From assembly GCA_040771825.1 (NCBI GenBank), contig JAXGZG010000005.1, forward strand, positions 99,640-163,639: a stretch of 64,000 bases of DNA, written 5' to 3'. This DNA is from Bacillota bacterium. GTDB taxonomy: Bacteria; Bacillota; Sulfobacillia; Fermentithermobacillales; Fermentithermobacillaceae. The notes beneath the pieces were generated by a model. That model saw only the letters and a list, made by a program, of their open reading frames with translations, did no database searches and was not told the DNA's origin. Shown piece by piece: positions 23,063 through 63,139 of the stretch. Every line of letters begins with the position of its first letter. Within the stretch, counting starts at the first letter, position 1. Both the position numbers and the translations under genes were made by a program.

Positions 23063-23180
23063 TAACTCTCCTGCGGCAGCCTTAGGAACTGTCAGCCTGA
23101 CACTCGATATACTCACCCTTATCTCGCCCCCTACACATTTTGACATAATGCGATACGAATTTGCATGCATCTGGCCTTTA

Positions 23181-23215: not shown

Positions 23216-23291
23216 CGCTTTACAGTTAGAGCGGTCGGACCGTGGGGCCGGCTATCTTAACGTCGAACAGATTCTGAAGGGTGTTGGCGCG

Positions 23292-23579
23292 ATGGAAAAC
23301 AGAAAAGAGCAGGCCAAAAGACCCAGCGTCAAACCTGCGGAGCGGGCGCCGGAAACCTTGGGTCGCGCTTGTCCCTGCGGCGTACCGGAAAACGAGTTTC
23401 CGTGTATGGATAACTGCTTTCGGAAAAGCGCCGCCGCGCCGGACGGCGGGTACGAGGCGCTCTGCCCGCATTGCGGCATATGGACTTCCTTACCGGAGGG
23501 AGCGGCCCTCAAAGTGACCCGTATTTTTGACTGTGCCTTGATGGGTTATGGCAAGCGAGTAACCGAGGAGGATAGGTAA
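23292..23579 (+). CDS. small Cys-rich (zinc-ribbon-like) protein
   Basis: 95-aa ORF from the internal ATG at 23292. Cys pattern CPCG...C...C...CPHC...C. Its last codons carry the GAGGAGGA SD of the next gene, and its stop lies 1 nt before that gene's ATG, indicating translational coupling. Confidence 0.5.
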   Translation: MENRKEQAKRPSVKPAERAPETLGRACPCGVPENEFPCMDNCFRKSAAAPDGGYEALCPHCGIWTSLPEGAALKVTRIFDCALMGYGKRVTEEDR

Positions 23580-23580
23580 A

Positions 23581-38582: not shown

Positions 38583-38634
38583 ACCGCTGCCCCCTCAAAT
38601 GCTCTTCAAACACAGGATGCATTAGGTTCTTCAC

Positions 38635-41361
38635 TTAGTCACGAGTGAGGAAACTGTCAATCAGCGACCGCTTGAGCGTGTGCAAAACATCCCCTGAACG
38701 CACGCATGCGCCAAGGGTCGCATCAAAGGCATCGAGCGATTGAGTCACTTGATACTGTTCCGCGCGAGTCATGACTGGCAATGGGAAATCAGCAAAGTGT
38801 CTGAAGTACAGGTGGCGAACCTTACTTCCTTCGCATCGGTTCTCCACGAGCCTTCGGAATCTAGTAGTCTGCAGACAGCGGAATAGAAACTTCGGATCCA
38901 TGTCAGTCTCAATGATGAACCTGCCAATCCGCTGGTTAAGCATGCCCTCGTCGGAGTCACGCGTGAAGCAGACTCGACCCATAAAGCCATCTTCCAAAGA
39001 TTGCGCCGTCAGGTTGATCAATACCTGGTCTTGTTCAATGTACCAGTTCAGATTCTCAGTCCGCCACCAATCGGGCAATGTCACGGTCGCTGATGGCGAC
39101 CAATCTAGGGTTCCATCCGGAGCGAGATTACCCGGGCGTATTAGGCGGACACCGAGTTCGTCGTGCTTTTGGTATACCGCACTCGGAAAAGGGCGCCCAT
39201 TCTGCATCGTCGCCACTGCGTCGAGTCGCACAAAGTTCTCGTCGAAACACGCACGTTCGGGGGAAGGGATTATCCCATCAATCGCAGCAAGCCTGGCCGT
39301 CGATACACTCCTACTGAGAGAGGAATATCTCTGTTCTACCTCATCTAGGGCCCATAGAACCCCCGCGATCCGCCTCTGCTGGTCCAATGGGGGAAGGTCG
39401 AACTCGAATCTGGCAAGGCTACTCCAATTGGTACGAGGCGAAAGCGAGCCTGCAGAAGTCTCTACCGCATGCTGATAGAACCTCTCTGTGAGGCACAGGA
39501 AGGGTAGCAGCTCTGGCAAGAGCCGATGGTCTTTCGGCGCTAGAACGTAAATGTCTCCAGAAACCACCGCATCGAATTCCGCAACTGCCACTTTGCGTTG
39601 GTATGCCCGGCGCTTACCAAAAAGCACCTGCCCAGGACGACACCGGCGCCTGAAGGTGGTGCCATCGGCTATATTGCCCCACTTTCCGATATGAAGAGAG
39701 CCGGGCTCGATATGCTCCAGCCCGACGAACCGCTCCAACCCAGCCTCAATGGGACTGGATACCGTATCATTAAGGTTTTCGACAACATCCCCGAATCGAA
39801 CCAGCGGCCACGCGGCCTTGCCCTTCAGCAGTTCATGAGTATCCGCCGAGATAGAACTGTACTCCAAACCTGGTAACTCGAAGCCCTCAAGTATGCTTCC
39901 CAGAGCTTCTTCAAGACTGCTTCGTGAGCACAACCAAGCGTCTATGGATTCAGCCAGGGCAGAGATCCCGACTCCATTGGGCCTACCATTGGCAGGCGGA
40001 GGTTCTACGTACAGGGGAATACTGAGGTTGCTATCGTGTCTGAGGATTTCGGTAAGCTTGGCTACGTGGGCGAGGCCTTCAACCTCTCCGAATCCGCCAT
40101 AGGCTTGAGCAATACGCTCAATGTGGTCCGCAGTAAGGAAACTCTGGGCACGCTCACGCGTAACCTCGCCAACCGCATTGATAAAAAGGACTTTGCCTCT
40201 GCGCTCAGGAGGCTTCGATGTCTTGCAGATGATAACGCAAGCTTCCATCGGAGAGTTGTAGAAAAGGTTCGGCCCAAGCCCTATTACACATTCGATCAGG
40301 TCCGCCTCGATCAACTTCTGCCGCATCTCCGCTTCTTCCTGACGGAATAGAACTCCATGCGGGAAGAGGATGGCACACCGACCCGTGTCAGGCTTGAGAC
40401 TGGCCAGAATGTGCTGCCAGAATGCGTAGTCAGCTCTCCCCTGTGGCGGGGTACCGTAAAGATTGCGTCCCCATGGGTCTGAGGAAAAGGCATCACGGTC
40501 CCACTGCTTGATGGAATAAGGTGGGTTCGCCAGGATGACGTCGAATTGCATCAGGCGGTCTCCCTGAACGAACTTGGGTTCAGATAGGGTGTCGCCACGG
40601 ACGATCTGGAAGTCCTCGATGCCGTGAAGAAAGCAGTTCATCCGTGCGATTGAGGAGGTCATCAGGTTCTTCTCTTGGCCATAGAGCCTGACATTTCGCC
40701 ACTCCTGACCGTTACGACGCAAGTGAGCAATGCAGGACAACAGCATGCCTCCGGATCCGCAAGTGGGATCGTAAATGGACTCTCCCGGTTGGGGCTGGAG
40801 GAGCTCAGTCATGAGGTGGACTACCGTCCGGTTTGTATAGAACTCAGCGGCAGTATGACCTGAATCATCGGCAAATTTCTTTATCAAGTATTCGTAGCCC
40901 TGACCCAACTCGTCCTCGGGAAGATTGGCCAAGCTCAGTTCCAGGGCACTAAAATGCTCGACTAGATCCCTCAACATGGCATCATTGAGTCGATCCTTGT
41001 TCGTCCACTGGGCATCGCCGAAGATGCCGTACAGTTTTTCGGGATTCGCAGTCTCAATCGCCCGCATCGCGTTCTGGAGGGCCTGCCCGACATTGTTCGA
41101 CACCTGGCGAACCCGGCTCCAATGAGCGTCAAGAGGGATCTGAAAACGGTGGTTCTCCGGGTAAGCAGCAAACAGAGCGTCGCCGCCAGACTCTGCAAGG
41201 GCGGCCTCCGTCTCCTCATCAAAGACATCACAGAGTCGCTTGTAGAACAAAAGCGGGAATATGAACTGCTTGTAATCGCCGGCGTCTATAGTGCCGCGCA
41301 GCAAGACGGCGGCTCCCCAAAGGTATGATTCGAGTTGCTGTTGGGAGATTGGTCCGCTCAC
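38635..41361 (-). CDS. type I R-M methyltransferase subunit fused to a complete specificity subunit (HsdM-HsdS fusion)
   Basis: 908 aa with a GTG start in a GTGA overlap with upstream hsdM. HsdM_N-like QLESYLWGAAVLLRGTIDAGDYKQFIFPLLFYKR. SAM motif DPTCGSGGML and catalytic ILANPPYSIKQW. These are followed by two target-recognition domains with the conserved spacer LPPLDQQRRIAGVLWALDEV. Confidence 0.85.
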   Translation of the reverse strand: MSGPISQQQLESYLWGAAVLLRGTIDAGDYKQFIFPLLFYKRLCDVFDEETEAALAESGGDALFAAYPENHRFQIPLDAHWSRVRQVSNNVGQALQNAMRAIETANPEKLYGIFGDAQWTNKDRLNDAMLRDLVEHFSALELSLANLPEDELGQGYEYLIKKFADDSGHTAAEFYTNRTVVHLMTELLQPQPGESIYDPTCGSGGMLLSCIAHLRRNGQEWRNVRLYGQEKNLMTSSIARMNCFLHGIEDFQIVRGDTLSEPKFVQGDRLMQFDVILANPPYSIKQWDRDAFSSDPWGRNLYGTPPQGRADYAFWQHILASLKPDTGRCAILFPHGVLFRQEEAEMRQKLIEADLIECVIGLGPNLFYNSPMEACVIICKTSKPPERRGKVLFINAVGEVTRERAQSFLTADHIERIAQAYGGFGEVEGLAHVAKLTEILRHDSNLSIPLYVEPPPANGRPNGVGISALAESIDAWLCSRSSLEEALGSILEGFELPGLEYSSISADTHELLKGKAAWPLVRFGDVVENLNDTVSSPIEAGLERFVGLEHIEPGSLHIGKWGNIADGTTFRRRCRPGQVLFGKRRAYQRKVAVAEFDAVVSGDIYVLAPKDHRLLPELLPFLCLTERFYQHAVETSAGSLSPRTNWSSLARFEFDLPPLDQQRRIAGVLWALDEVEQRYSSLSRSVSTARLAAIDGIIPSPERACFDENFVRLDAVATMQNGRPFPSAVYQKHDELGVRLIRPGNLAPDGTLDWSPSATVTLPDWWRTENLNWYIEQDQVLINLTAQSLEDGFMGRVCFTRDSDEGMLNQRIGRFIIETDMDPKFLFRCLQTTRFRRLVENRCEGSKVRHLYFRHFADFPLPVMTRAEQYQVTQSLDAFDATLGACVRSGDVLHTLKRSLIDSFLTRD

Positions 41362-42857
41362 CTGAGTATCCCCTCCCGCTTGAGAATGGCTATAAGCTTC
41401 TCTTCTGCGGCAAAGGCCCTCTGAGCGCTCTCTTTCAGTCGGCGCATCGCTTCCTCCACAGTGAGCACTTCCGACTCGACTTGCGGTGTGATATAGCGTG
41501 GGATATTGAGGTTATGGTCGTTGGCAGCGATCTCGTCGAGCGTCACCACACGGGCGACACCCTCGACATCCTCATACCGCTGATACCAGCAATGGATACG
41601 ATCAACATGCTCGGGAAGGAGCTCGTTTTGTGCGCGACCGGTTTTGAACTCGCGGGAAGCGTCCACAAAGAGAATCCTGTTCCTTCGATCGTTCTTCTTT
41701 CGCTGGCGAAAGATGCAGATACATGCTGCAAGGCCCGTACCATAGAAAAGATTAGGTCCTAGCCCAATGACTGCTTCAAGAACGTCCATCTGTAGGATCT
41801 TCTTGCGGATGTCACCTTCCTTACCCATTCGGAAGAGCGCTCCGTGAGGCAGCACCACAGCCATACGTCCGGTGACTGCGGCCATGGACTTGATCATATG
41901 CTGAACCCAAGCGTAGTCACCGCTCTTGGAAGGTGGCATCCCGGCAAAGCTGCGACCGTAAGGGTCACCGGCCCAGACCTCCTCCCCCCATTTCTGGAGC
42001 GAGAACGGTGGATTAGCGATGACGCAGTCAAACGTGGCGAGATTGTCGCCAGAGAAAAACGCAGGCTGACGCAATGTATCTCCACGCACGATTTCGAAAT
42101 CCGAGGCCCCGTGCAGAAAGAGGTTCATCCGCGCAATGGCAGAGGTAGTGAGGTTCTTCTCCTGACCAAAAAGCTTGCCCCAGAGAGTACGGTCGTCCCC
42201 TTCATTGTCACAGACGTGGCGAACAGCTTCTAGAAGCATACCACCCGTTCCACAAGCGGGATCATAGATGGTCTCACCTTCCTTGGGGTCTAGGATCTTA
42301 ACCATAAGACGTACCACAGAGCGCGGGGTGTAAAACTCCCCCGCCTTTTTGTTTGCAAGATCTGCAAACTTCTTGATCAGGTACTCGTATGCCTGGCCCA
42401 TAATGTCGTCCTGGGCAGCTTGATTGCCAAGCCAGACTCGGGAGAAGTGCTCCATCAGGTCGCGGAGCAGCGAATCAGGCAAGCGCTCTTTATTGGTCCA
42501 CGGCGCATCACCAAAAATGCCGTAGAGCGTGTCTTGGTTGGCTCGTTCGATGTCATGCATGGCCCTTTGTAAGGCTTGACCAACATTGGCGGTGACAATA
42601 CGGACATCGTTCCAGTGGGCGCCCTCGGCGACCTGGAACCGATAGTTTTGGGGAAACCGGGCATACTCCTGGTCGCCGCCTGATTCGGCTAGCGCCGCAT
42701 CATATTCCTCGTCATAGACGTCCGATATGCGCTTGAAAAAAAGGAGCGGAAAGATATAGGTCTTGAAGTCAGCAGCATCAACTGTTCCGCGCAGGATGTT
42801 TGCCGCTTCCCAGAGGTGGGATTCGAGTTGGCTTTGCGTTGTGGAGCTAATAGTCAT
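41358..42857 (-). CDS. hsdM: type I restriction-modification system methyltransferase subunit
   Basis: Preferred ATG at 42857, 7 nt after GAGGTGA. QLESHLWEAANILRGTVDAADFKTYIFPLLFFKR, DPACGTGGML, VIANPPFSLQKW. Confidence 0.9.
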   Translation of the reverse strand: MTISSTTQSQLESHLWEAANILRGTVDAADFKTYIFPLLFFKRISDVYDEEYDAALAESGGDQEYARFPQNYRFQVAEGAHWNDVRIVTANVGQALQRAMHDIERANQDTLYGIFGDAPWTNKERLPDSLLRDLMEHFSRVWLGNQAAQDDIMGQAYEYLIKKFADLANKKAGEFYTPRSVVRLMVKILDPKEGETIYDPACGTGGMLLEAVRHVCDNEGDDRTLWGKLFGQEKNLTTSAIARMNLFLHGASDFEIVRGDTLRQPAFFSGDNLATFDCVIANPPFSLQKWGEEVWAGDPYGRSFAGMPPSKSGDYAWVQHMIKSMAAVTGRMAVVLPHGALFRMGKEGDIRKKILQMDVLEAVIGLGPNLFYGTGLAACICIFRQRKKNDRRNRILFVDASREFKTGRAQNELLPEHVDRIHCWYQRYEDVEGVARVVTLDEIAANDHNLNIPRYITPQVESEVLTVEEAMRRLKESAQRAFAAEEKLIAILKREGILR

Positions 42858-43056
42858 GGGATGATCACCTCTGATACGCATAACGGCGTCTCTTACGGAC
42901 ACCGCATCCCAAGGACGAAAAGTCGTCCAGCGATAGGGAGGGTCTGGTAACCTACATCACTTCTTCCCTACCATCACTCAGATTTCCTGTCGATTCAGAG
43001 GAGGTGGGGTGGACAAGATGGGGTGGACAGAATTGGTTGGCCATCTGACTAGAGAG

Positions 43057-44436: not shown

Positions 44437-44763
44437 TTACAACCGAAGAGTCAAGGGTCTTTCTGATCCTGATAGAAGACAGAAAAGCAAAGGCGAGGGT
44501 AAGTATGTACCCTGATGTGCAGGCGAATTTGGGAGAACAACGTAGACAACGCACTCACGGTCCATAAGTCTGTAGATTACTCGGTGTTCCCCAGTAGTCG
44601 TTGTCACGGGCAAGCTTCGGAGCCCCTCGTGCCCGCGCAACGATTTCCCCAGATTAGGAGTCTCGGATAGGCGTTTGAAGGCACGCGAGTATGCTTTGCG
44701 GACTTCGCGGTCGAATCCGGCAATTAGCTTGGCCACTCTCTGGCTACCCCGAACCTCCCACAT
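44437..44763 (-). CDS. RelE/ParE-family type II toxin
   Basis: ATG at 44763, 5 nt after the antitoxin stop. MWEVRGSQRVAKLIAGFDREVRKAYSRAFKRLSETPNLGKSLRGHEGLRSLPVTTTTGEHRVIYRLMDRECVVYVV fits the RelE/ParE pattern. The last ~30 residues look atypical. Confidence 0.6.
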   Translation of the reverse strand: MWEVRGSQRVAKLIAGFDREVRKAYSRAFKRLSETPNLGKSLRGHEGLRSLPVTTTTGEHRVIYRLMDRECVVYVVLPNSPAHQGTYLPSPLLFCLLSGSERPLTLRL

Positions 44764-44767
44764 CAGG

Positions 44768-45118
44768 CTACTTCCCCTTTCGTGGCCAGAGAGGAACAGT
44801 TCTTCCCTCATCCCAATCTCGATCAGCGTCGGCAATGCTATCGCGTAGTTCCTCTTCAAGAGCCTTTAGTAAAGCTCTCTTCCTCTCCCGAACCTTCTCC
44901 GCAGCTTCGCCTCCTGTGTAGCCTTCTTTGGCCACATCCCGTGCAATGAGATCGCCAAACTCCTCTGTAAAGGTCACTGGCTCTAGGACTGCCCGGCCGT
45001 TCTTGAGGCTTAGGTAAACATAGTCCCCGGAAAAGAGACTCTCGCGGAGCCTCCGCGGAATTGTTATTTGCCCTTTGGGGCTGATCTTCAAGCGCAAGCG
45101 CTCTGACAATACGATCAC
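44768..45118 (-). CDS. AbrB/MazE/SpoVT-family antitoxin
   Basis: N-terminal swapped-hairpin motif ISPKGQITIPRRLRESL, followed by an acidic helical tail. Confidence 0.7.
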   Translation of the reverse strand: MIVLSERLRLKISPKGQITIPRRLRESLFSGDYVYLSLKNGRAVLEPVTFTEEFGDLIARDVAKEGYTGGEAAEKVRERKRALLKALEEELRDSIADADRDWDEGRTVPLWPRKGK

Positions 45119-46922: not shown

Positions 46923-48335
46923 TCATGAAGAAGGAACAAACCGCTCCAGCACGGCCGGCTTGTAGGCCAAGAAAGATTCCTCCTGGTACACCGCCCCATG
47001 CTTCTCGATATCGTGAGCCAGCCTCCTCAAGTCCTCGTTTCCTGCACTTAGGTAGTCTTCGGGGACTTCAATCATTCGACCGGTGGCACCTGGATGCGGA
47101 ACCACAGTAATAGTTGAATACTTGGCAGGCCCGGTAGCCAGGTCCGAGTCTGCCTGCCCCACGAGGTCGGCCGAGCGACTATCAAACCAGGCCAACAGCC
47201 GTTCGGCTATTCTCAGTCCTCCCAGGTCCCAATCAGTCCAGATGAGGACATCCATGCCTGAAAGCCCGCTCATCTTCTCTAGAAGGTAATAAAGCCCGTG
47301 CTTCGGCATGCCGTCGGTGCACACAACCAACCACCCTTCGCGGGCAACATTCTCTTCCGCAAGGATGTCGAGAGCAGCTCGGTTCTCAACCAAGACCAAC
47401 AGGCGAGCAGAGGTATCGACCGCAGAAGCCGCTCTGAGATCCCGAGTTGATATGGTCGGGACGGTACCCCAGATGGACTGCCCATCCACCGCAAGGCCTC
47501 CATGAAATGGGATCCAATAGAGAAGGTGAGCGCCTCTCACCCCGAGTTCCTCTAGGGAGATCCCGAGGTCCGATTCTGCCACCTGGGCTATGGGCCCGCG
47601 CAGACTCTCCAAATGTTTGACCGAATCTCGCTCCCCAAGATGAAGCCGGCCTGAAATCTCCTTGAACTCAAGGGAGACATCCTCCGGCTGAGAACCAAGG
47701 TAAGCGAAGAACTCAAGAATACGAAGGTAGTTGCGGCTTGCCTTGGGCGATAGGTAGTCAATCTGGGAGTCTACCTCCTGCAGAAAGAACACCGGTCCCC
47801 CCGAGCGAACCGCATCCAATTGCCTTGACAAGAACTGGTGAATTACCGGCCTGCGACACTCTGAGAGATACTTTTCTAGCCTGCCTGCCAAATCCTCTCT
47901 AGGACCTGGGGGAACGGTGCCAAACGCGGCGTCCAGATGCTTCCATCCAACTTCGGTCACGGTCAAGTAGGAACGAATTGGTGTGTTGGCACGGTCTAAG
48001 GTTTCTTCTCGCTCAAGTATGCCGAGTCCGATGAGAGAATCGACAATAGCCTGTGTGTTGACCTGCTTGCGGCCGCGTCTGGATAATCGGTTTCTGAAGG
48101 AACTCTCGCTAAGGCGCTTTGTGCCCTTCGTGCGTGACTCATTGAGCAGTCTAAGAGCGTCATGAACTCCAGCTTTCGATGACAAGTCAGCTACAAGGGC
48201 ATGGGATTCGCCGGATGGCCGCCTGGTTACTCGCCGTACCGGCTTGGCACCGGAACGTGAGGAGTTGTAGTAGGTTACGACCTCTAGCGACCCGGAAAGC
48301 CTTGTATCCGAGAATAGAGGCTCGCGCGAAGGCAC
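46923..48335 (-). CDS. JetD/MksG-like protein: wHTH-like N-terminal part plus C-terminal Toprim-like domain
   Basis: GTG start 7 nt after GAGGTGA. The C-terminus has LLVLVENRAALDIL...VVCTDGMPKHG...VLIWTDWDLGGLRIAERL, i.e. a conserved Glu plus DxD, as in the DUF2220-type Toprim of Wadjet JetD. Confidence 0.65.
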   Translation of the reverse strand: MPSREPLFSDTRLSGSLEVVTYYNSSRSGAKPVRRVTRRPSGESHALVADLSSKAGVHDALRLLNESRTKGTKRLSESSFRNRLSRRGRKQVNTQAIVDSLIGLGILEREETLDRANTPIRSYLTVTEVGWKHLDAAFGTVPPGPREDLAGRLEKYLSECRRPVIHQFLSRQLDAVRSGGPVFFLQEVDSQIDYLSPKASRNYLRILEFFAYLGSQPEDVSLEFKEISGRLHLGERDSVKHLESLRGPIAQVAESDLGISLEELGVRGAHLLYWIPFHGGLAVDGQSIWGTVPTISTRDLRAASAVDTSARLLVLVENRAALDILAEENVAREGWLVVCTDGMPKHGLYYLLEKMSGLSGMDVLIWTDWDLGGLRIAERLLAWFDSRSADLVGQADSDLATGPAKYSTITVVPHPGATGRMIEVPEDYLSAGNEDLRRLAHDIEKHGAVYQEESFLAYKPAVLERFVPSS

Positions 48336-48373
48336 GGCCCATCACCTCAATTGTAGAGTCTTCTTTTGGCCTC

Positions 48374-51300
48374 CTACGCCTTGCGCCTGAAAACCCGGGT
48401 TTTGGAGCCTTCTTCCGGAGAACGATACACTCCAATCCCAAACTCTGTCTGGGCAAGATGGCTCTTGTTCAGCCTGTGAGAGATGATGATGTACTTACGG
48501 TCAAGTTCTTCTCTCAGGATTGCCGACAGCCTAAGCACGTTGGCCGGATCCAACGATTGATCGATTTCATCGAAAATGTAGAAGGGCCTACGGTACTCTT
48601 TCACCATTGCCAGAGTCAGTAGCGCAGCTATTGCGCTAGTCTCCCCTCCCGAACGGTTCCTTAGGAGAGGCTTGGGTTCTACGCCTTCGTACACCGACAC
48701 GTGTATGTTCAGTTCGAACTGAGCACCCTGTATCGGCTCGACCGTCAGATGCCCCCGCCAGCCAAAACGCTCCATGTACTTTTGGAAACGCGCTGAAATG
48801 TTAGTGAACGTCTGCTGCATAAGGTTTCTGAAGTTGTCTTGGGCGGCGCTTTCCTTGCCGGAGGCATCCTCGAAGGCGGCTTGCACGCGTTCAAGGTCGG
48901 ACTGTGATTTCTCAAATTGGTCCTTGGCCGCCTTGTAATCCTCCTCAGCGGTTGAGATAACGTTATCCTTCAGCGCCAAAACTGCGGGTTTGACTTCGGC
49001 CATGCGCTTAACCCACCTGGCGCGTTGCGCCTCGCTGGCGCCCCGTGAGGCCTTGGCAGCTTCAGAGCCCTTAGAACTTACTTCGTCGTCGGTCATCCCG
49101 GGCGTATCGAAGGCACTGCGCCACACATCGAAGATAGCGCCAGAAGACGCCTGTACGTCTCTGAGACTACGCCTCTTCTCCTCCACACGCTGGCGCAGGT
49201 CAGCCACCGTCGGCCCGACGTCAGTCAACCTAGATGATACATATTCAAGATGGATCCCGGTCTCGGAGATCTTCTGAGAGAGTCCGAAAACTGTACTGTT
49301 GAGCTCATCCCTCTCTTGCTGAGCGGCGTCCGCCTCTCTGCGGGCCTGGCCTTCCTTTGCCCTGAGTTCCGCCACGTTCTGCTTCATCACCGGCAGCTGG
49401 CCGTACTGCTTTAGTTTTTCCAACCGTCTCCCCGCAGCCTCGAGACTGTCCGCGGTTCGCGCTAGATGCACCTTCAAGTCGGTCAGGGATTCGCGGACGT
49501 TCGCGAGCTCACTTTGGAGCGCCTGAAATTGCTCTTCAAAGCCGGTCAACCGTGAAGTGTCATCGGGGATGCGATCCGCCAAGTCGTCTACCTGACTTCT
49601 GGCCTCTCGAGCTTTCGCCAAGCGAGCATCAAGTGTTCTGACCCGCTGTGAAAGAGTCTCCTTTTCCTTGAGAGCCTCGTCGACGTCTGCCTGTGCCGAC
49701 CTTCGCTCTTCCTCCGCCCTCTCCAAAGCCATTTCGTAAGCTTCCTGTCCCAGCCGGAAGTCGTTGGGGACCGAGTACCTCCGCCCGTACCTGTCATAGC
49801 GGTACCCGTCGGATGTATATGCAGTAAATCCTTTAGAAGCCATGGCCATAGCAGTTTCGTGGCCTTGGACAAAGATGACGGAGTCCAAAATCCGCGTCAG
49901 CATATCGGAGATGGACTGAGGAAGCCCGGTAGCCTGTGTAAGCACTCGGGTGACAGAAGTCACGTCCGGTAGCGGCGCGTCGGCTTCCCCGGCAACGCCA
50001 AGCATCTCAGCCTCACCGAAGTCACAGATAGTGTACTCTGAGTAGTCCACTAGGACGCGGCCGTCTTCCACCAAGACCGCCCACCGCAAGTCGCCTAGGG
50101 CACCCTCAAGCGCACGCCGCTTTTCTACCGGCATGCCGGTCGGAGGCGAAACACATTCGCCAAGCACCGCTGCTTCTGTTCCTCCGGCGATGAACCTGTC
50201 TCTAGCCTCTATTGCGTTAGGCGGCGTGGCAGTGCGCTGCTTCAAGAGAGCATCGACCTCGCGCTCTGCCTTCTGCACACGCTCCTTGCCCAGAGCCAAC
50301 CGCTCCTGAACCGCCGCGAGGCGTGGTCTCTCCCTTTCGAGATTACCCGCGATAGACTCGGGGCTTCCGTAGGATGACAGCACTTCCCGGGACCTTTTTA
50401 GGTCATCTGCCATCCGCTCCAGCGACTGCCGCAAAGACACTACCGACTCCTGAGACTTCCTAGTCGCTGCTTCCAGCTCCTCAACCTTGGTGCCGGCAGT
50501 GCGGATGTCTGCCTCCACTGAAGTTTTCTTCGCTTCAAGGTCCAAAACAGCACGCTGAGCTTCTTCCAAGGTCAACCCCTCAGAAAGCGCGACTTCAATT
50601 TCGGACACCTGCCTTTGCAGATCGTCCGCCTGCCTCCGGAAATCATTGCGCTGGGAAGTTGCCGACGCATGGAGACTGACCGCTTCTTGCAGGTCCTTGT
50701 CAGCTTCTCTGCGCTCGTCTTCCAACCGAGCTTTCTCGAAGCCGTACGTCTCCTTTTCCTTCAGTAGATTAGATTGCTTCTCCGTCTCCTCCGAAAGCCG
50801 GGCCGCGGAGCTTCTCTCTTCTTCGATCGCCTGCTCCAACGCATGAATGTGCCTTATCAACTCATCTTGAGCCACTGAACGCCGCAGACCGTCATATTCC
50901 GCCGATAGCGTCCTGAACTCTTCCAAGTTCATCCAGGCCCTCTCTTTCTGAGCAAGCCCGTCGCGAAGCGTCACGTTCTGCATCTGGGCATTCCTGAGTT
51001 CCGTCAGCGCAAGGTTCTTGGCGTCAAGAGTATCCTGCCATCGCCTCTCCAGATCCTCCAAGCCCAGGAACTGCTTCATTGTCTCGTACCGCAACCTGGG
51101 CTTCATCTGGACCAGCGCCGTGCTTTCGCCCTGTTGGATGAACATGAATCGATCGTCGGGCTGAATGTTGAAAGGCGGACGTCGAAAAATGTCCTCGTAC
51201 TCCTGGTGCGTCCGGTAGACCTGACGCTTGCCGTCTATCGCCGTGTAGTATCTGGAGAACGGCCTGGCGTTCTCGTATCCAAACTCCAACCCCAGCACAA

Positions 51301-51583
51301 CCGTTTCCGGCCAGTCCGGATTCCAAAGATCATCGCGTCTATTCAGGACGGTGAGTTCAGCCACTGCCCGCTTGTTCACCCTGCCGGTACGCTCATCCAG
51401 GTAGCTTTGATGCAAGTCGGAAGGGGGGTCGCCCATCAGAGCCTGAATCATCCGGGCAACAGTGCTCTTCCCGGAACCATTGGGGCCAAACATGATCACT
51501 TCCTTGACATCGGCTCCGCCGAGGCTGATGGCGTGGTTTCCGTAAGCCCGCACACCTGACAACCGCAACTCAAGGGGTATCAT
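48374..51583 (-). CDS. SMC-like ATPase (JetC/MksB position)
   Basis: 1069 aa. Walker A GPNGSGKST at the N-terminus. Two long coiled-coil arms flank a ~130-aa globular middle segment. C-terminal SGGETS signature, Walker B FYIFDEIDQSLD and IIISH. Confidence 0.85.
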   Translation of the reverse strand: MIPLELRLSGVRAYGNHAISLGGADVKEVIMFGPNGSGKSTVARMIQALMGDPPSDLHQSYLDERTGRVNKRAVAELTVLNRRDDLWNPDWPETVVLGLEFGYENARPFSRYYTAIDGKRQVYRTHQEYEDIFRRPPFNIQPDDRFMFIQQGESTALVQMKPRLRYETMKQFLGLEDLERRWQDTLDAKNLALTELRNAQMQNVTLRDGLAQKERAWMNLEEFRTLSAEYDGLRRSVAQDELIRHIHALEQAIEEERSSAARLSEETEKQSNLLKEKETYGFEKARLEDERREADKDLQEAVSLHASATSQRNDFRRQADDLQRQVSEIEVALSEGLTLEEAQRAVLDLEAKKTSVEADIRTAGTKVEELEAATRKSQESVVSLRQSLERMADDLKRSREVLSSYGSPESIAGNLERERPRLAAVQERLALGKERVQKAEREVDALLKQRTATPPNAIEARDRFIAGGTEAAVLGECVSPPTGMPVEKRRALEGALGDLRWAVLVEDGRVLVDYSEYTICDFGEAEMLGVAGEADAPLPDVTSVTRVLTQATGLPQSISDMLTRILDSVIFVQGHETAMAMASKGFTAYTSDGYRYDRYGRRYSVPNDFRLGQEAYEMALERAEEERRSAQADVDEALKEKETLSQRVRTLDARLAKAREARSQVDDLADRIPDDTSRLTGFEEQFQALQSELANVRESLTDLKVHLARTADSLEAAGRRLEKLKQYGQLPVMKQNVAELRAKEGQARREADAAQQERDELNSTVFGLSQKISETGIHLEYVSSRLTDVGPTVADLRQRVEEKRRSLRDVQASSGAIFDVWRSAFDTPGMTDDEVSSKGSEAAKASRGASEAQRARWVKRMAEVKPAVLALKDNVISTAEEDYKAAKDQFEKSQSDLERVQAAFEDASGKESAAQDNFRNLMQQTFTNISARFQKYMERFGWRGHLTVEPIQGAQFELNIHVSVYEGVEPKPLLRNRSGGETSAIAALLTLAMVKEYRRPFYIFDEIDQSLDPANVLRLSAILREELDRKYIIISHRLNKSHLAQTEFGIGVYRSPEEGSKTRVFRRKA

Positions 51584-52869
51584 GAGGCACCTCCGTCTTC
51601 GCTCGAGCCGCCACTGGCGGTGATTTCCACTTCTGCCTCGGCGTCTTGTACGGCTTCATCCACTGCCTCGTCACCCGCCTCTTCAGCGTCTGTGGCTGAC
51701 ACCTGGTCCATTGCCAGCACCTGCTCGAAGTTGACCTCGACAAACTCTCGCAGATGGTCCACGATTTCGGGCCCTGGTCTCAGGTTCAAAGCCAGCGATA
51801 GGGCCATCTTCCCCGCAGGAGTCATCCCGAGTCTCCCTGTTCGCGAGATGGAGATCCACCCCTTCTTCGCCAGTACGGAGAGAGTTCGGGACAAAAACCG
51901 GCTCGGGCCCTTGACCCTCCCTGTGAAAACGGGCAACAGTTGGGAACGATTGAGCCTTCGCCGCCCGGACTCGCACAGATACCAGATGTAGGCAGCCAGA
52001 GCTACCGCGGCGGAGGTCACTGGGTTCAAACCCGCCTGGAACACCCTGGAAGCGTCCACCAAGGCCACAACCCTATCGTCGGAAACCTTTATCCGAAAGT
52101 AGCGGTCGAAGCCCTGTCCCAGGCAGTACGACTCGAAGCCGTTCAGAGAGTCCTCACCCAAGGAGCGCAGCGCGGAAGCGACGGTCGGGGGCCGGCCGCA
52201 GGCGGTACCCACAATCACCCTACGTATCAGCTTCTCGTATTTGGGTTCCGGCCCGGAAAAGTCAAACAGACTGGGCGGAAGGACTACCTGCTTCCTATCC
52301 TCACGGCGGCCTGACCCGAAAAACGCCGCCACTTCGGCAGGTCTAAAGTCTCTGCCCTGCGACTCGGATACAATCTTTTGAAGAAACACGGGACCCATGG
52401 ACTCCATGCCCACCGGGGTCGGCTCGTAAGTATACTGGCCATCGAATTGGGACTTATCGACCCAATAGAGCCGCTCAAGTTCGTCAAGCGCCCGCGCCAC
52501 ACTCCTGCTTGCGCTCCGCTCCGCGGAGACAAACTGTTCAATAATGACGGACTTGGGCACGGGGATGGAGTTGTCCTGCCGCCACTTGGCGACAAACAAG
52601 AACACGGCAATGGCTTGGGCGGAAATGGGAGACTCCCTAGAAATCAGCTCTCGGGAAGCGATCCCTAGAGTTACGGTACGGCCGTCGGCGAGAACACGGA
52701 AATACCTACCAAGACACGAGGACCGAATGTAAGAGAAGAAGCCCGTGAGGTCATCGTCACCGATAAGCCGTTGAACCGCGCTTTGAGTGATGGACTTGCC
52801 TAGACTTGTCCCACACAGGATAGCCCGGATGGCCAGATCATACTTATCGTTATACATCGCGATGCTCAA
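51580..52869 (-). CDS. internally duplicated winged-helix protein (JetB/MksE/ScpB position)
   Basis: 429 aa. Residues ~5-150 and ~205-350 align to each other (YDLAIRAILCGT...GRYFRVLADGRTVTLGIASR vs YEKLIRRVIVGT...DRYFRIKVSDDRVVALVDAS). Acidic C-terminal tail. ATGA overlap with the ATPase gene. Confidence 0.55.
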   Translation of the reverse strand: MSIAMYNDKYDLAIRAILCGTSLGKSITQSAVQRLIGDDDLTGFFSYIRSSCLGRYFRVLADGRTVTLGIASRELISRESPISAQAIAVFLFVAKWRQDNSIPVPKSVIIEQFVSAERSASRSVARALDELERLYWVDKSQFDGQYTYEPTPVGMESMGPVFLQKIVSESQGRDFRPAEVAAFFGSGRREDRKQVVLPPSLFDFSGPEPKYEKLIRRVIVGTACGRPPTVASALRSLGEDSLNGFESYCLGQGFDRYFRIKVSDDRVVALVDASRVFQAGLNPVTSAAVALAAYIWYLCESGRRRLNRSQLLPVFTGRVKGPSRFLSRTLSVLAKKGWISISRTGRLGMTPAGKMALSLALNLRPGPEIVDHLREFVEVNFEQVLAMDQVSATDAEEAGDEAVDEAVQDAEAEVEITASGGSSEDGGAS

Positions 52870-54238
52870 GGGCTTCCATCACCGCCTTTCTTCTTATCAG
52901 GATCTCGCCCAACATCACCAATCTGTCAGACTCATACACTTCACACGAGTGCCTGCCCGAGGCCATGCCTTTGGTGACTACCTCGCCGGCTGCAGCGGCG
53001 GACATGAGAATGTCATCCCATCGTTCTACAGCCTTCAGAAGATGGGACTCGTGGACTTCGCCTTGGATTGGCAGAGAGGCTAGTACCCGATCGACGTAGG
53101 GAGCAAAGTCTTCGTCAAATTCCCCTTCTTCGTAGGAGTTCAGGTCTCCTTCGATGGAAGACGTAATCTCAGGTTCCGGCGGTATTGCTCCCGGGGCGGC
53201 GTGTTCTCTGCCCAAAGTATCTGCTACAAACTCCTCCAGCTGATCGTAGCTGGGATAGCCCGGAAGGTATATCGGGAGCGTCACATCGCCAGCCTCTCCG
53301 GCCATTTCAAGAAGCCTATCTCCGGCGAACACACTACAAAGCCAATTATAGAACTTGGTCTTGTTGATCAGGTTCATCTCCGAAAGGGCCTTCCCGGTAG
53401 AGTGGGAGAGCACTCCGGTCATTGCTTTGAAAGCCACCCCGAGGGCTCCTGTCCGTGCCTTCTCGACCCTATCGACGATAGGCAAAGCGTACCTAAAGCC
53501 CTGCTTCTTTTGGTCATCCAGAACACCTTGCACAAAATCGTACCTGTCCAGTATGGCCTTTATCTGTTCTATGGCCACGCCTTCCATTATGTAGTCATAG
53601 AGGCGGCGCTCTACGTCCCGGTAACCCTTCTCCAGGAAGCTGAGAGCGCGGTTCAGACTACCGGCTTCATAGCCCTTGCCTTCATAGGCACCCATGAGCT
53701 CGATCTCACGCTGGCTCTGGAACAAAAGCTGCTCTATGGGGTTTTTCCGGTGGAAGCCATACCAATCCTGAAGAACACGGTGAACAGTGCCGAGGAGGCG
53801 GCTTCCCTTGGTCGTCAACTGGACGGACACATCCTTGTTGATCAGGCTCAGGCGATGGCAAGTCGTCAGAAAGCCCGAAGGATCCGCTTTTGGTGCGGCG
53901 CCCCATCTCTCCTTGAACCGGTTCTGGAGGCCTATGTGGCCTCCTACCCCTCCGCCGGTGGCGTACTCTTCTTCCTGTATCAGGAGTAGCATCTTAACTG
54001 CGTCGATTAGCTTCTCCGGGTTTCTGCCGTCATCGCTGACTGCATAAGCGAGACTCGCAAGATCAGACAGGTCCCGCGCGGCCAGTATGAGGGCGTTGGG
54101 AGAATCACCCGTTAGGAAGTCGGTCTTTTGGACCGATGGATCCTCCTGACCCTGCTCCATGTGGGCTGCGGCTTCTCCCGGCTTGGGCGCCATCGGAAGC
54201 GCAGGTTGGTCTTGAAAATCGAACTGGTCAGGAGACAT
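52850..54238 (-). CDS. hypothetical protein in the JetA/MksF (kleisin) position
   Basis: 462 aa, first gene of the operon, GGAGG SD 8 nt upstream. Overlaps the next gene by 20 nt. I recognise no named motif, so the call rests on position and size only. Confidence 0.4.
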   Translation of the reverse strand: MSPDQFDFQDQPALPMAPKPGEAAAHMEQGQEDPSVQKTDFLTGDSPNALILAARDLSDLASLAYAVSDDGRNPEKLIDAVKMLLLIQEEEYATGGGVGGHIGLQNRFKERWGAAPKADPSGFLTTCHRLSLINKDVSVQLTTKGSRLLGTVHRVLQDWYGFHRKNPIEQLLFQSQREIELMGAYEGKGYEAGSLNRALSFLEKGYRDVERRLYDYIMEGVAIEQIKAILDRYDFVQGVLDDQKKQGFRYALPIVDRVEKARTGALGVAFKAMTGVLSHSTGKALSEMNLINKTKFYNWLCSVFAGDRLLEMAGEAGDVTLPIYLPGYPSYDQLEEFVADTLGREHAAPGAIPPEPEITSSIEGDLNSYEEGEFDEDFAPYVDRVLASLPIQGEVHESHLLKAVERWDDILMSAAAAGEVVTKGMASGRHSCEVYESDRLVMLGEILIRRKAVMEALEHRDV

Positions 54239-54288
54239 CAGAAAACCTCCGGAGAAAGGTCCGTGTGAACGACTATTGTAACAAGTTG

Positions 54289-54297
54289 ATTATACCA
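54289..54297 (-). promoter_or_regulatory. extended -10 promoter element (TGGTATAAT) for the SMC/Toprim operon
   Basis: The reverse complement of 54289-54297 reads TGGTATAAT, ~50 nt upstream of the 54238 start codon. No convincing -35 element. Confidence 0.3.
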
Positions 54298-60345: not shown

Positions 60346-62820
60346 CTAGTTCCAGGCAGGCTCCTCTGTACCGCTTGGACCCACTCGATAGGGCATCCAC
60401 ACCAAAGCGACTGCTTTCACGCTGATGTCCTTCTTGGCAGGCCTTACGACATACTGTTGGAAGGTTTCATTCAGCGGGCTAAGCTTCTCCGAAAGTTCCA
60501 GGGTCTCGCGCCGAAGATCATCTTCTAGCACCTTCATGTCATTCTGGAGAGCTGCCAAAGACTCTGCCGAGCGCTGAACATCGGTTTGCTCCTTCATGTA
60601 CCTGCTAGCACCCCTGGCCGCTGTCGTCGCTCTCCCCAAAGTGGACGTGCTTCGGGCCTTGGTTCCAAGGAAGGACGTAAGAAGCGTAGAGCCTATCGAA
60701 ATCGCCGTCTGCATCTGTTGCTGCTTAGCCTGCATCTTCTCCCGCTCAACGGCGGCCTCGGCTCGACGGATCTTATCCATCAAGGAGTTCGTCTTGGCCG
60801 CGTACTTCTTCCGGATGGCGTCCACAGCTTCTTCGCGCTTTTCGCGGAAATCCTGGTCAAGTCGCACTCGGAAATCGCGCTCAGACTCACCCATCCTGGA
60901 AAACGCTTTGGCCACCGAACTCTGCATGAGGACTATCTGCTGCGTCCTATAAAGCCAATCTGCGAAGGCCTTGGCCCACTGGGCATAGCTTCTGGATGAT
61001 CCGGCCGAAGCAGCCAGGGGAGCGAATGAGACACCTGAGAGGCCGGAAGTCTCCAGGTCGGAGATGCTACTCTCAGCGGGGAATGCGGCATCCCAGTCGA
61101 TGCCCTGTACATCATCGGGAACAGGAACGGCAAAGGAGAGCTCCTCGGTTGAGTTGACTCCGCTTTTCATGTCAAGGAAACGTACAAGCGAATTGCCCAG
61201 TGTGGCAGGACGATAAATGAATTCGTCGGGCCTCCCGCGCCCACGTAGCGGTAGGAAGTACTGTCTCACGTCAGGCGGCAGCACCGGGGGATCAGAGGCC
61301 GTCAGACGCTGAGACGGGTAAGCGGGCTCTGGAGGCGCCCATACGGGCTGTTGTGCCGGCGGATACCCAGGCGCTTGCGGCGGCTGCCAGCTTGTTAGCT
61401 GGGGTGACTTCTTGCTCACAGCGAGGCTTTGTATCTGACTTCGCGACAACGGCCCCGCTAGATATGACATGACCCACCGCGTCTCGAATACAGTCGGCGC
61501 ATCTTCCCGAACGTTGTTCATGAGGAAAACTCTTTGCCCCAAACCGGCAAGGATTGCCTCCATCTTGGCCTTATCAAACCGCGCGCCCTGAGATAGGGCG
61601 GCTCCCTCCAGTCCTTCCAAGACCCTCATCTTATCGCGCTCGGTCTGCAGCCTTCCTATGAACCACGTACCTGTGTTGGAGAGACCCTTGTAGTCCAGAT
61701 CCACAGGGTTCTGAGTGGTCAGCATGACTCCAAGGCCAAACGCTCTAGCCTGCTTGAGAAGAGTCAGCAAGGGAGCCTTGGTCGGAGGGTTGGCCACAGG
61801 GGGGAAGTAGCCGTAGATCTCATCCATGTAGAGCAGTGCGCGCAGGCTTGTGGTGCCGGTCTGAACGCGGGTCCAGCTAAGAACCTGGTTAAGCAGAAGT
61901 GCCACAAAGAACATCCTCTCAGCCTCAGACAGATGGGCTATGGAGAAGATAGAGATCTTAGGCTTCCCCGTTGGCGTGTGGAGGATGCTGTCTACATCAA
62001 GAGATTCCCCCTGCATCCAAGCTGCAAAACCCGGAGAAGCCAACAGGTTGTTGAACTGAATGGCTAAGGCAAATCGGTCCTTGGATGGGTAGAAAGATTC
62101 CAGACTCATCACGCCAATCTGGCCAACCGGCGGAGAGTTTATCTGCTGTATTAGCGTGGCAAGGTCAAGATCCTGCCCTCTCTGCCACGCGTACGAGAGT
62201 ATAGTGGAGATAAGGATATGCTCCCGGCTCCTTATCGGATCCGCCGTGATGCCTACGAGCCCGAGGAGACTGCTTGCGGTACCGCTAACCCGCTCATTCA
62301 AGAGTTCCATATCCTCGATGATTGCTCTTGACGGAGCCGCGAAGGACTTGAGAATCGATATCGGGACACCCGCCGTGCTGCCCGGAGTGTAGATCACAAA
62401 CTCGGCAGAATCACGAAGCCGTTTTATCCGCTCGCCGTCCTGACCCCAAGAGGCCAGGCCCTTCTTCCATAGTTCCGCTTGGGATACCGCGTACTCCTCG
62501 GGAGACATATTCTTACGTCTCGCATCATCCTCGTTGATCCATGGCCTGAAGTCCTCGGGACAAAGGTCAGGGAACGTGAGGAGGAGATTCGCCATATCTC
62601 CTTTGGGGTCAATGACAATGGCGGGAACACCGTCTATGGCCGCTTCCTCCAAGAGGGCAACGCAAAGACCCGTCTTGCCACTTCCGGTCATGCCGACGCA
62701 GACTCCGTGGGTGACCATGTCTTTTGAGCTGTATAGGAGGTACCCATCACCGAGGCTTCTCTTTTCTAGATCATAGGGGCGACCGAGGTAGAAGACGCCC
62801 AGTTTCTCGTATGAGTCCAT
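60346..62820 (-). CDS. HerA/FtsK-like P-loop ATPase with Pro-rich linker and long coiled-coil C-terminal region
   Basis: Preferred ATG at 62820, 8 nt after GGGAG. Walker A GMTGSGKTG, Walker B LRALLYMDEIYGY. Linker SWQPPQAPGYPPAQQPVWAPPEPAYP. The C-terminal ~350 aa include a KKYAAKTNSLMDKIRRAEAAVEREKMQAKQQQMQ coiled coil. Confidence 0.7.
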   Translation of the reverse strand: MDSYEKLGVFYLGRPYDLEKRSLGDGYLLYSSKDMVTHGVCVGMTGSGKTGLCVALLEEAAIDGVPAIVIDPKGDMANLLLTFPDLCPEDFRPWINEDDARRKNMSPEEYAVSQAELWKKGLASWGQDGERIKRLRDSAEFVIYTPGSTAGVPISILKSFAAPSRAIIEDMELLNERVSGTASSLLGLVGITADPIRSREHILISTILSYAWQRGQDLDLATLIQQINSPPVGQIGVMSLESFYPSKDRFALAIQFNNLLASPGFAAWMQGESLDVDSILHTPTGKPKISIFSIAHLSEAERMFFVALLLNQVLSWTRVQTGTTSLRALLYMDEIYGYFPPVANPPTKAPLLTLLKQARAFGLGVMLTTQNPVDLDYKGLSNTGTWFIGRLQTERDKMRVLEGLEGAALSQGARFDKAKMEAILAGLGQRVFLMNNVREDAPTVFETRWVMSYLAGPLSRSQIQSLAVSKKSPQLTSWQPPQAPGYPPAQQPVWAPPEPAYPSQRLTASDPPVLPPDVRQYFLPLRGRGRPDEFIYRPATLGNSLVRFLDMKSGVNSTEELSFAVPVPDDVQGIDWDAAFPAESSISDLETSGLSGVSFAPLAASAGSSRSYAQWAKAFADWLYRTQQIVLMQSSVAKAFSRMGESERDFRVRLDQDFREKREEAVDAIRKKYAAKTNSLMDKIRRAEAAVEREKMQAKQQQMQTAISIGSTLLTSFLGTKARSTSTLGRATTAARGASRYMKEQTDVQRSAESLAALQNDMKVLEDDLRRETLELSEKLSPLNETFQQYVVRPAKKDISVKAVALVWMPYRVGPSGTEEPAWN

Positions 62821-62854
62821 GCGCTCAACTCCCATGAGGTTTATGTGCGTAGTA

Positions 62855-63139
62855 TTACTCCAAACGGGGGGCGTCTTCCTGCGACAGAAGGTAAGGCGTC
62901 ACGCCGCCGGCATCATGCTCAACCTGAGGTAGGGCGCCGAGAGTGGCAAAACCTGCAGGCACCCCAAAAGACCGCAAGGCATGATTCTCCTCTCCCCACC
63001 GTGGCACGGTAAACATCCCATTCGGCCACGCCTCGACAAATCGAAACTTTTCGTGCTTCGACGTCGTCTTAAACGTATGGCATGTTGCGTCTATGGAGGT
63101 ATGCGAGATGCGCAAGTCTTTGATCGCGTGGGAAGTCAT
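62855..63139 (-). CDS. small hypothetical protein upstream of the HerA-like ATPase
   Basis: The ORF ends 34 nt before the ATPase start. The C-terminal part (FVEAWPNGMFTVPRWGEENHALRSFGVPAGFATLGALPQVEHDAGGVTPYLL) looks protein-like. The start is uncertain (63139 or 63016), and the longer forms overlap the divergent lipoprotein gene. Confidence 0.3.
   Translation of the reverse strand: MTSHAIKDLRISHTSIDATCHTFKTTSKHEKFRFVEAWPNGMFTVPRWGEENHALRSFGVPAGFATLGALPQVEHDAGGVTPYLLSQEDAPRLE

Follow-up and report, generated by a model that had tools for sequence, protein, structure and literature searches.

A divergent Wadjet operon of probable type III descent with a tandem KITE subunit in a Bacillota genome

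Restriction of circular plasmids has been shown for representatives of Wadjet types I, II and III (bioRxiv 10.1101/2022.10.04.510915; bioRxiv 10.1101/2025.03.10.642339). The type III JetABCD system of B. thuringiensis restricts plasmids and requires the Toprim glutamate (bioRxiv 10.1101/2022.10.04.510915). In type II Wadjet, a tandem KITE replaces the KITE dimer; reported in 2025, this arrangement was presented as a hallmark of type II that can help to dissect what individual winged helices do in loop extrusion (bioRxiv 10.1101/2025.03.10.642339). In the one paper library that we searched for the phrase "tandem KITE", it is reported for type II only. Knowledge of types II and III is scant, and no published type III structure was present in the library searched. 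Here we describe a JetABCD-type operon in a 64-kb stretch of DNA from a Bacillota genome (positions 99,640 to 163,639 of contig JAXGZG010000005.1, assembly GCA_040771825.1; hereafter the window). The operon lies at 46923-54238 on the minus strand and consists of four co-directional, tightly packed open reading frames (ORFs; genes 1 to 4). Our comparison makes it very probable that the operon encodes a Wadjet system in the order JetA-tandem JetB-JetC-JetD and stands on a rare branch of type III that diverged deeply.

Comparison of the four subunits with type III Wadjet

The definitions of the Wadjet types were taken from published work (PMC10586767; bioRxiv 10.1101/2022.10.04.510915; bioRxiv 10.1101/2025.03.10.642339), and the operons of Heyndrickxia sporothermodurans (L018) and Ammoniphilus oxalaticus (L016) were used for calibration. 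The four-gene set that Wadjet requires, namely a kleisin, a KITE protein, an SMC ATPase and a Toprim nuclease, is found in one operon. When the four proteins were compared with PADLOC, their only or best Wadjet matches were type III models. For JetA3/B3/C3/D3, the canonical type III operon of Heyndrickxia scored 795/395/1465/608 bits, where the JetB3 value is that of P0050, the representative of the protein cluster containing Heyndrickxia JetB. The intermediate operon of Ammoniphilus scored 224/122/459/187 bits and the window operon 33/27/133/38 bits. Pairwise BLASTP against the Ammoniphilus proteins aligned gene 1 with JetA3 (24% identity over 301 aa, E 6e-19), both head halves of gene 3 with JetC3 (E 6e-18 and 2e-16) and the Toprim region of gene 4 with JetD3 (27% identity over 132 aa, E 2e-8). 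Together, the score gradient and the significant BLASTP matches to Ammoniphilus suggest that the operon belongs to the type III lineage as a distant outlier and is not an unrelated assembly. The Wadjet-type operon that had been read from the sequence alone (the original prediction) thus finds agreement among PADLOC matches to JetA, JetB, JetC and JetD, structural models and fold matches. Homology, domain anatomy, conservation and duplication history are what the comparison establishes directly.

The likeness to type III covers four homologous subunits, a non-MukB head that matches SMC_N here and in Ammoniphilus, a DUF2399-like Toprim JetD, and JetA and JetB proteins that have no Pfam family. 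JetA, JetC and JetD measure 462, 1069 and 470 aa here, compared with profile lengths of 474, 1068 and 437. The differences are also clear. Scores in the window range from 27 to 133 bits, as against 395 to 1465 bits for the canonical system. A type III system would be expected to encode a single-lobe, homodimeric JetB of ~230 aa (canonical JetB3 proteins have 229-236 aa), whereas gene 2 encodes a tandem fusion of 429 aa. Gene order differs as well, being A-BB-C-D on one strand here and D-A-B-C in Heyndrickxia (L018 5382-11886); in Ammoniphilus (L016 6521-13290), A-B-C is followed by an oppositely oriented JetD that shares 4 nt with the end of JetC.

Gene 1, which the original prediction had called unrecognisable, can be placed. 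JetA3 was its sole PADLOC match (E 7.6e-9, 33 bits), and library scans of Pfam and NCBIfam gave no match. An AlphaFold2 (AF2) model built from 16 homologues, with a predicted local distance difference test (pLDDT) score of 63, has an N-terminal winged helix and helical bundle, a flexible linker and a C-terminal winged helix. This predicted layout agrees with that described for the kleisins MukF and JetA (bioRxiv 10.1101/2022.10.04.510915; bioRxiv 10.1101/2025.03.10.642339). In Foldseek, E. coli JetA (8q72_E) ranked first, followed by the SMC5/6 core chain 7tve_G and MukF(1-287), and the C-terminal domain matched Scc1-C and ScpA-C with a probability of 0.98-0.99. None of the whole-chain matches to this model was significant (E 0.016 or worse), as expected because the protein is flexible and multi-domain. 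The original prediction had left to structure prediction whether gene 1 is kleisin-like, and both layout and fold matches suggest that it is. Because all four proteins match JetA3, JetB3, JetC3 and JetD3 and are pairwise homologous to the Ammoniphilus operon, gene 1 probably encodes a JetA-type kleisin.

Gene 4 scored almost equally against JetD3 (2.9e-10, 37.7 bits) and JetD2 (1.2e-9, 36.1 bits) in PADLOC. It passed the Pfam cut-off for DUF2399 (34.7 bits, cut-off 23.4) and stayed below that of NCBIfam TIGR02679 (26.6 bits, cut-off 196). A Toprim-like module with a VENR glutamate and a DWD motif had been proposed for its C-terminal part. This module is well supported: E317, CTDGMPK, D368 and D370 are invariant among 14 gene 4 homologues, and a C-terminal YQEE motif is nearly so. 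Residues 1-60 (48156-48335, minus strand) form a conserved basic segment with the consensus EVTT...R.GARP.RR, which is missing in several shorter homologue calls. The segment may be a docking arm, or the shorter homologues may be mis-called at the start. In the NCBI metagenome-assembled genome (MAG) JANLGA01 (L003/L012 14497-15828), the JetD homologue is divided between two ORFs (305 and 132 aa); a near-identical JGI contig (L004 6826-8175) carries it intact at 450 aa. Either a frameshift in the assembly or recent decay into a pseudogene would explain the split.

Several results count against placing the operon in the type III lineage. The PADLOC matches of JetA, JetB and JetD are weak and cover each protein only in part. 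Single-sequence and family-profile searches of PDB sequences with genes 1, 2 and 4 returned no JetA, JetB, JetD, MukE or MukF chain, and genes 1 and 2 are linked to solved Jet and Muk chains by fold comparison alone. Those comparisons start from AF2 models with pLDDT 63 (gene 1) and 71 (gene 2), and their Foldseek E-values of 0.016 and 1.1e-3 are marginal. The gene 3 hinge, searched by itself, had no match in Pfam (SMC_hinge included) or among PDB sequences. Across the four proteins, a Pfam scan found SMC_N (gene 3) and DUF2399 (gene 4) only, and an NCBIfam scan found no model at its curated cut-off. As the original prediction had supposed, the lineage lies outside existing curated models, in that the Pfam and NCBIfam Wadjet models for JetA, JetB and JetC do not cover it. 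In the comparison with known Wadjet models that was proposed at that time, type III profiles match all four proteins, with low scores and partial coverage.

The tandem KITE and its origin

The sole PADLOC match of gene 2 was JetB3 (E 7.6e-7, 27 bits; lobe 1 alone, E 6e-6), and no family was found in library scans of Pfam or NCBIfam. An internal duplication of a winged-helix-turn-helix protein had been suggested for this gene, and three lines of evidence bear it out. BLASTP aligned the two halves at 29% identity over 129 aa (E 4e-15). Family profiles of lobe 1 and lobe 2, when compared with hhalign, matched with a probability of 99.5% (E 3.5e-23) over 151 columns that covered both winged helices. 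The AF2 model (pLDDT 71) contains four winged helices. In Foldseek, the best match of the whole protein was 9qe0_D, the tandem JetB of N. vireti type II Wadjet (415 columns, probability 1.0, E 1.1e-3), followed by ScpB, MukE and MAGE-G1/Nse1. These data indicate that gene 2 encodes a predicted tandem KITE with four winged helices. The doubling had been put forward as a departure from Wadjet; the doubling is real, and its novelty does not stand, as a tandem KITE has been published for type II (bioRxiv 10.1101/2025.03.10.642339).

We further compared the two lobes across the family. Mean within-family identity is 55.8% for lobe 1 and 44.9% for lobe 2, and lobe 1 is nearer than lobe 2 to single-lobe relatives. 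The LFD motif at the end of the lobe 1 tail is invariant in the family alignment and appears as (T/S)LF(D/E) in 12 of 12 tandem proteins. Its position matches the C-terminal end of the single-lobe protein P0046 (...LAMFD). The single-lobe proteins P0046 and P0049 close with an acidic tail and, after it, a motif of hydrophobic and acidic residues (LAMFD, LGFFE...). In each of the 12 tandem proteins these features lie apart: the tail of lobe 1 carries the LF(D/E) motif and is close to neutral, whereas that of lobe 2 is acidic and has no such motif. It looks as though the ancestral JetB tail was split between the two lobes of the tandem protein. More speculatively, the conserved linker motif may dock JetD or JetC. 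We considered LFD as the counterpart of the type I JetB IFDR motif, which contacts JetD (PMC10586767). This equivalence was rejected because IFDR is N-terminal, and we keep it only as a hypothesis by analogy.

Relatives of gene 2 are few. An exhaustive profile search through 1.84 billion representative proteins yielded 10, among them tandem proteins (392-422 aa), fragments and three proteins with a single lobe. The single-lobe proteins are P0050 (the canonical Bacillaceae JetB3), P0049 (the Ammoniphilus JetB3) and P0046 (213 aa). The gene for P0046 lies on a 2-kb contig. Its neighbours are a JetA-like gene on one side (29% identical to gene 1, E 1e-31) and, starting 18 nt downstream, a JetC-like gene on the other (34% identical to gene 3, E 1e-28). 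Lobe 1 of gene 2 aligned with P0046 at 32% identity over 180 aa (E 1e-32). Hidden Markov models (HMMs) of the lobes both detected P0046 (lobe 1, E 1.5e-38; lobe 2, E 1.4e-24). The lobe 1 HMM also detected the JetB3 proteins of Heyndrickxia and Ammoniphilus (E 5e-15 and 8e-14), and the lobe 2 HMM did so marginally (2e-3 and 1.5, respectively). Neither HMM matched JetB2 of the verified type II operon L014 (Ilumatobacteraceae). In a tree of the lobes, the lobe 1 copies were monophyletic at 100% bootstrap, as were the lobe 2 copies. Lobe 1, lobe 2 and P0046 formed a clade at 100% bootstrap, with the Ammoniphilus and Bacillaceae JetB3 proteins outside.

By these comparisons, both lobes nest inside the JetB3 lineage beside the single-lobe sister P0046. 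This nesting, and the absence of similarity to type II JetB2 in the HMM search, point to a fusion that is independent of type II. The simplest reading is that one duplication and fusion took place inside the type III lineage, in putative convergence with the type II tandem KITE.

Three considerations weigh against so simple a history. The lobe tree was built by plain neighbour joining from 190 columns, with bootstrap. Within it, the order among lobe 1, lobe 2 and P0046 splits 29/28.5/42.5%, and because of this three-way branching the P0046 lineage may have lost one lobe secondarily. The P0046 lineage is also known from a single 2-kb contig. A metagenome scan found no relatives of P0046, and a tblastn search of plasmids with canonical JetB3 gave no match.

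If the duplication were instead inherited from a type II ancestor, the operon would be a member of type II Wadjet. Gene 2 has the type II tandem JetB of N. vireti (nvJET-II; PDB 9QE0/9QE1) as its best structural match, with four winged helices in each, and the order A-B-C-D is the same. Gene 4 also passes DUF2399, the C-terminal family of type II JetD, and JetD2 scores nearly as well as JetD3. However, a sub-threshold DUF2399 signal is present in type III JetD proteins too, and the other subunits do not follow. Genes 1 and 2 had no JetA2 or JetB2 match at E<=1, and scans of Pfam, PADLOC and NCBIfam gave no match to JetA2 (DUF2397/TIGR02677) or JetB2 (DUF2398/TIGR02678), so that neither protein has detectable sequence similarity to its type II counterpart. 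Gene 3 reached 5.7 bits against JetC2, TIGR02680 was absent among the best 25 gene 3 matches listed, and gene 4 fell well short of TIGR02679. JetC here is SMC_N-like and, at 1069 aa, ~300 aa shorter than the MukB-like JetC2 of ~1360-1370 aa. The lobes themselves are alignable by BLAST, whereas those of nvJetB are described as substantially diverged. The lobe HMMs miss JetB2 of the verified operon while that of lobe 1 clearly detects JetB3, and both lobes group with single-lobe relatives in the JetB3 lineage. We therefore regard descent from type II as very unlikely.

Having placed the operon on a type III branch, we lean slightly towards treating it as an unclassified fourth Wadjet architecture, one that would combine type III-derived subunits, the A-B-C-D order known from types I and II, a second independent tandem KITE and lobes that split roles between them.

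The SMC-like head and the proposed mechanism

Gene 3 holds a full ATPase set (Walker A, signature, Walker B and H-loop), with two coiled-coil arms and a hinge insert. The motifs GPNGSGKST, SGGETS, FYIFDEIDQSLD and IIISH named in the original prediction were all recovered (Table 1). In PADLOC, its best match was JetC3 (PDLC00580; E 4e-39, 132.6 bits), whereas no type I JetC model exceeded 22.7 bits. Pfam SMC_N spans residues 5-1050 with 68.7 bits (cut-off 40). Among PDB sequences, gene 3 matched the heads of Smc (Pyrococcus, Bacillus), cohesin and condensin, and none of its 33 matches was a JetC or MukB chain. An SMC-type head had been read as a departure from Wadjet. The head is indeed nearer to canonical Smc than to type I or II JetC, but it does not set the operon apart. 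Ammoniphilus JetC3 reaches 60.5 bits against SMC_N; Heyndrickxia JetC3 matches AAA_23 with 46 bits and has SMC_N below threshold at 15.9 bits. The Ammoniphilus score places the SMC-type head within the type III lineage, indicating that an SMC-like, non-MukB head, as judged from sequence profiles, is a trait common to at least the Ammoniphilus branch of type III and no departure from Wadjet.

The same head raises another question, namely whether the operon could encode a chromosomal condensin of the Smc-ScpAB or MksBEF kind that acquired a JetD gene and mainly serves chromosome organisation. The head is closest in sequence to canonical Smc heads, and the operon sits in a chromosomal context with rlmH adjoining. 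Such an origin is nevertheless highly improbable, as all four genes show subunit-by-subunit homology to type III JetABCD. The predicted kleisin is modelled with the N-terminal winged helix and bundle of MukF and JetA and not with the layout of ScpA. Pfam returned no ScpA, ScpB or SMC_hinge match, the isolated hinge included, and ScpB and ScpA-C appear only as generic fold relatives of genes 2 and 1. For TIGR02168 in NCBIfam, gene 3 scored 129.5 bits against a cut-off of 567. The operon is rare (~6/185,579 species genomes), and its neighbourhoods are varied and in several cases defence-rich, as for a mobile accessory system; the catalytic residues of JetD are invariant. The suggestion of an Smc-ScpAB complex that recruited JetD is not supported, given four co-linear homologues of type III JetABCD and a hinge that matches no SMC_hinge model. 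Taken together, the Wadjet logic, the Smc-like head and the doubled gene 2 of the original prediction are retained, and its unrecognisable gene 1, its view of the head as a departure and its Smc-ScpAB complex with JetD are not. We regard the operon as a Wadjet system; it is not a hybrid with Smc-ScpAB, nor does it open a new category.

Gene 3 also matched LmuB (7.7e-25) and mad3 (4.5e-20) in PADLOC, but a Lamassu LmuB-like or MADS-type defence system with a superficial resemblance to Wadjet is scarcely credible, since JetC3 is the better match (4e-39), genuine JetC3 proteins also match LmuB and mad3 secondarily, Lamassu lacks the set of kleisin, KITE and Toprim, and genes 1, 2 and 4 match JetA3, JetB3 and JetD3.

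When compared with type I Wadjet and MksBEFG (E. coli GF4-3, P. aeruginosa, C. glutamicum), the window operon shares the four-part logic and the Toprim catalytic glutamate and DxD motif, and E. coli JetA is the top fold match of gene 1. Genes 1 and 2 differ in having no DUF3375 or DUF4194 match. JetB of type I is a homodimer, and its N-terminal IFDR motif is absent here. The Nse1-Nse3 heterodimer of Smc5/6 resembles gene 2 in placing two diverged KITE units on each kleisin, which permits asymmetric roles. There, however, the units are separate polypeptides in a eukaryotic complex that has no Toprim nuclease, and the resemblance is one of analogy only.

The mechanism that we propose draws on homology with type I and II biochemistry and type III genetics (bioRxiv 10.1101/2022.10.04.510915; bioRxiv 10.1101/2025.03.10.642339). 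Two JetC SMC ATPases would dimerise via the hinge, and the JetA kleisin would bridge their heads and so close the dimer. The N-terminal winged helix and helical bundle of JetA probably pair two such motors. One tandem KITE polypeptide, bound to the central kleisin segment, would act as a built-in pseudo-heterodimer in place of the JetB homodimer. The JetC/JetA motor would extrude DNA loops. On small circular DNA it would stall, and a JetD Toprim dimer (E317, D368, D370) would then cleave. By this analogy we infer that the window operon restricts plasmids through loop extrusion and Toprim cleavage; complex stoichiometry and plasmid specificity would likewise carry over from the described systems. 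The tandem KITE itself would have arisen once in the clade, when a JetB3-type gene was duplicated and its copies fused, without connection to the fusion in type II. It may then have turned asymmetric, with a conservative lobe 1 carrying LFD in the linker and a faster-evolving lobe 2 carrying the acidic tail.

The basic picture of how Wadjet works is unchanged by this operon. A second, apparently independent tandem KITE with a single-lobe sister suggests that KITE fusion and asymmetry are recurrent and no one-off. If this is true, repeated KITE asymmetry in type II, in the window clade and in eukaryotic Nse1/Nse3 would suggest that SMC motors favour an asymmetric KITE pair. Since there is a sister lineage with a single lobe, the clade would also allow the states before and after fusion to be compared. 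With lobes that are 23-29% identical and alignable, subfunctionalisation should be easier to trace here than in type II. Defence-finder profiles barely reach the clade, and Wadjet diversity in uncultured Bacillota is therefore probably under-counted.

Operon layout and genomic surroundings

The coordinates of the operon are given in Table 1. The four packed minus-strand genes were reproduced as originally predicted, together with their junctions. Genes 1 and 2 overlap by 20 nt (52850-52869) given the TTG start of gene 2, or by 8 nt with an alternative in-frame ATG at 52857. Genes 2 and 3 are joined via an ATGA overlap (51580-51583). Genes 3 and 4 are separated by 38 nt, and GAGGTGA lies in this gap, 6 nt ahead of the gene 4 GTG (48335). 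A promoter-like sequence had been noted ahead of the operon, and TGGTATAAT is indeed read there as a putative extended -10 element. A sigma-70 two-hexamer scan upstream of gene 1 found no -35 hexamer, leaving the extended -10 element alone, and matches to TGNTATAAT occur twice in the window compared with 0.47 expected by chance.

Table 1. Features of the operon and of the adjacent restriction-modification locus, in window coordinates
Feature	Coordinates	Strand	Residues	Remarks
Extended -10 promoter-like element TGGTATAAT	54289-54297	-		~50 nt upstream of gene 1 ATG; read from sequence
Ribosome-binding site GGAGG	54246-54250	-		7 nt before gene 1 ATG; read from sequence
Gene 1, predicted JetA-type kleisin	52850-54238	-	462 aa	ATG start
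Gene 1 N-terminal winged helix			~74-141	AF2 model
Gene 1 long helical bundle			143-316	AF2 model
Gene 1 disordered linker			318-373	AF2 model
Gene 1 C-terminal winged helix			379-450	AF2 model
Gene 2, predicted tandem KITE (JetB)	51580-52869	-	429 aa	TTG start
Gene 2 lobe 1	52261-52869	-	1-203	Winged-helix domains (WHD) WHD1 8-70, WHD2 84-150
Gene 2 disordered inter-lobe linker			186-209	AF2 model
Gene 2 linker motif L-F-D	52261-52269	-	201-203	End of lobe 1 tail
Gene 2 lobe 2 and stop codon	51580-52260	-	204-429	WHD3 210-270, WHD4 286-349
Gene 2 disordered acidic tail			389-429	End of lobe 2
Gene 3, JetC SMC ATPase	48374-51583	-	1069 aa	
Gene 3 Walker A GPNGSGKST	51461-51487	-	33-41	
Gene 3 Q-loop		-	~148-153	
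Gene 3 globular hinge	~49709-50230	-	~452-625	
Gene 3 signature SGGETS	48635-48652	-	978-983	
Gene 3 Walker B/D-loop FYIFDEIDQSLD	48548-48583	-	1001-1012	
Gene 3 H-loop IIISH	48476-48490	-	1032-1036	
Gene 4, predicted JetD nuclease	46923-48335	-	470 aa	GTG start
Gene 4 CAP-like/wHTH region		-		N-terminal part
Gene 4 Toprim		-	~295-454	C-terminal
Gene 4 catalytic glutamate	47385-47387	-	E317	In LVENR
Gene 4 DxD motif	47226-47234	-	D368, D370	In WTDWDLGG
HsdM, plain	41358-42902	-	514 aa	
HsdM fused to specificity (HsdS) domain	38635-41361	-	908 aa	
HsdR	35598-38582	-		

Co-linear copies of the A-BB-C-D operon, with 44-61% identity, occur in ~8 independent loci. Its carriers are Ca. Fermentithermobacillaceae MAGs, other Bacillota MAGs and one MAG labelled Ignavibacteriales. 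Flanks vary by locus and include cas1/cas2/cas4, HEPN-nucleotidyltransferase and UvrD-PDDEXK genes; one locus is flanked by metabolic genes only. This distribution fits a mobile accessory defence module. The MAG labelled Ignavibacteriales (L008, 4244-11392) carries a tandem-KITE operon with 44-58% identity in a phylum unlike that of all other carriers, an occurrence that reflects either horizontal transfer or a binning error. The Heyndrickxia type III operon is surrounded by PemK/MazE, Fic, DUF3800 and IS21 genes.

In the window, the surroundings comprise a type I restriction-modification (R-M) locus, a MazE-like antitoxin gene, rlmH, a glyoxalase-family gene and ABC-2 transporter genes. Both neighbours named in the original prediction, type I R-M and a toxin-antitoxin module, have a counterpart here. 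The R-M locus (35598-42902, minus strand) contains two consecutive methyltransferase genes. The MazE/AbrB-like antitoxin ORF (44768-45118, minus strand) overlaps a 140-aa ORF (44437-44859, minus strand) that had no Pfam or PADLOC match and may be an unclassified toxin partner. Near the window edge, the region 60346-63250 (minus strand) holds an 829-aa ATPase with weak HerA and mad8 matches (PADLOC 1.8e-12; Pfam DUF87). The ATPase adjoins a 131-aa ORF (62855-63250, minus strand) that had no match, and the two could be a further defence module. At 20246-28578, a 974-aa STAND-like regulator on the minus strand (AAA_16, TPR, Trans_reg_C) adjoins a 1665-aa surface protein that combines SLH domains with Listeria-Bacteroides repeats and a YDG domain.

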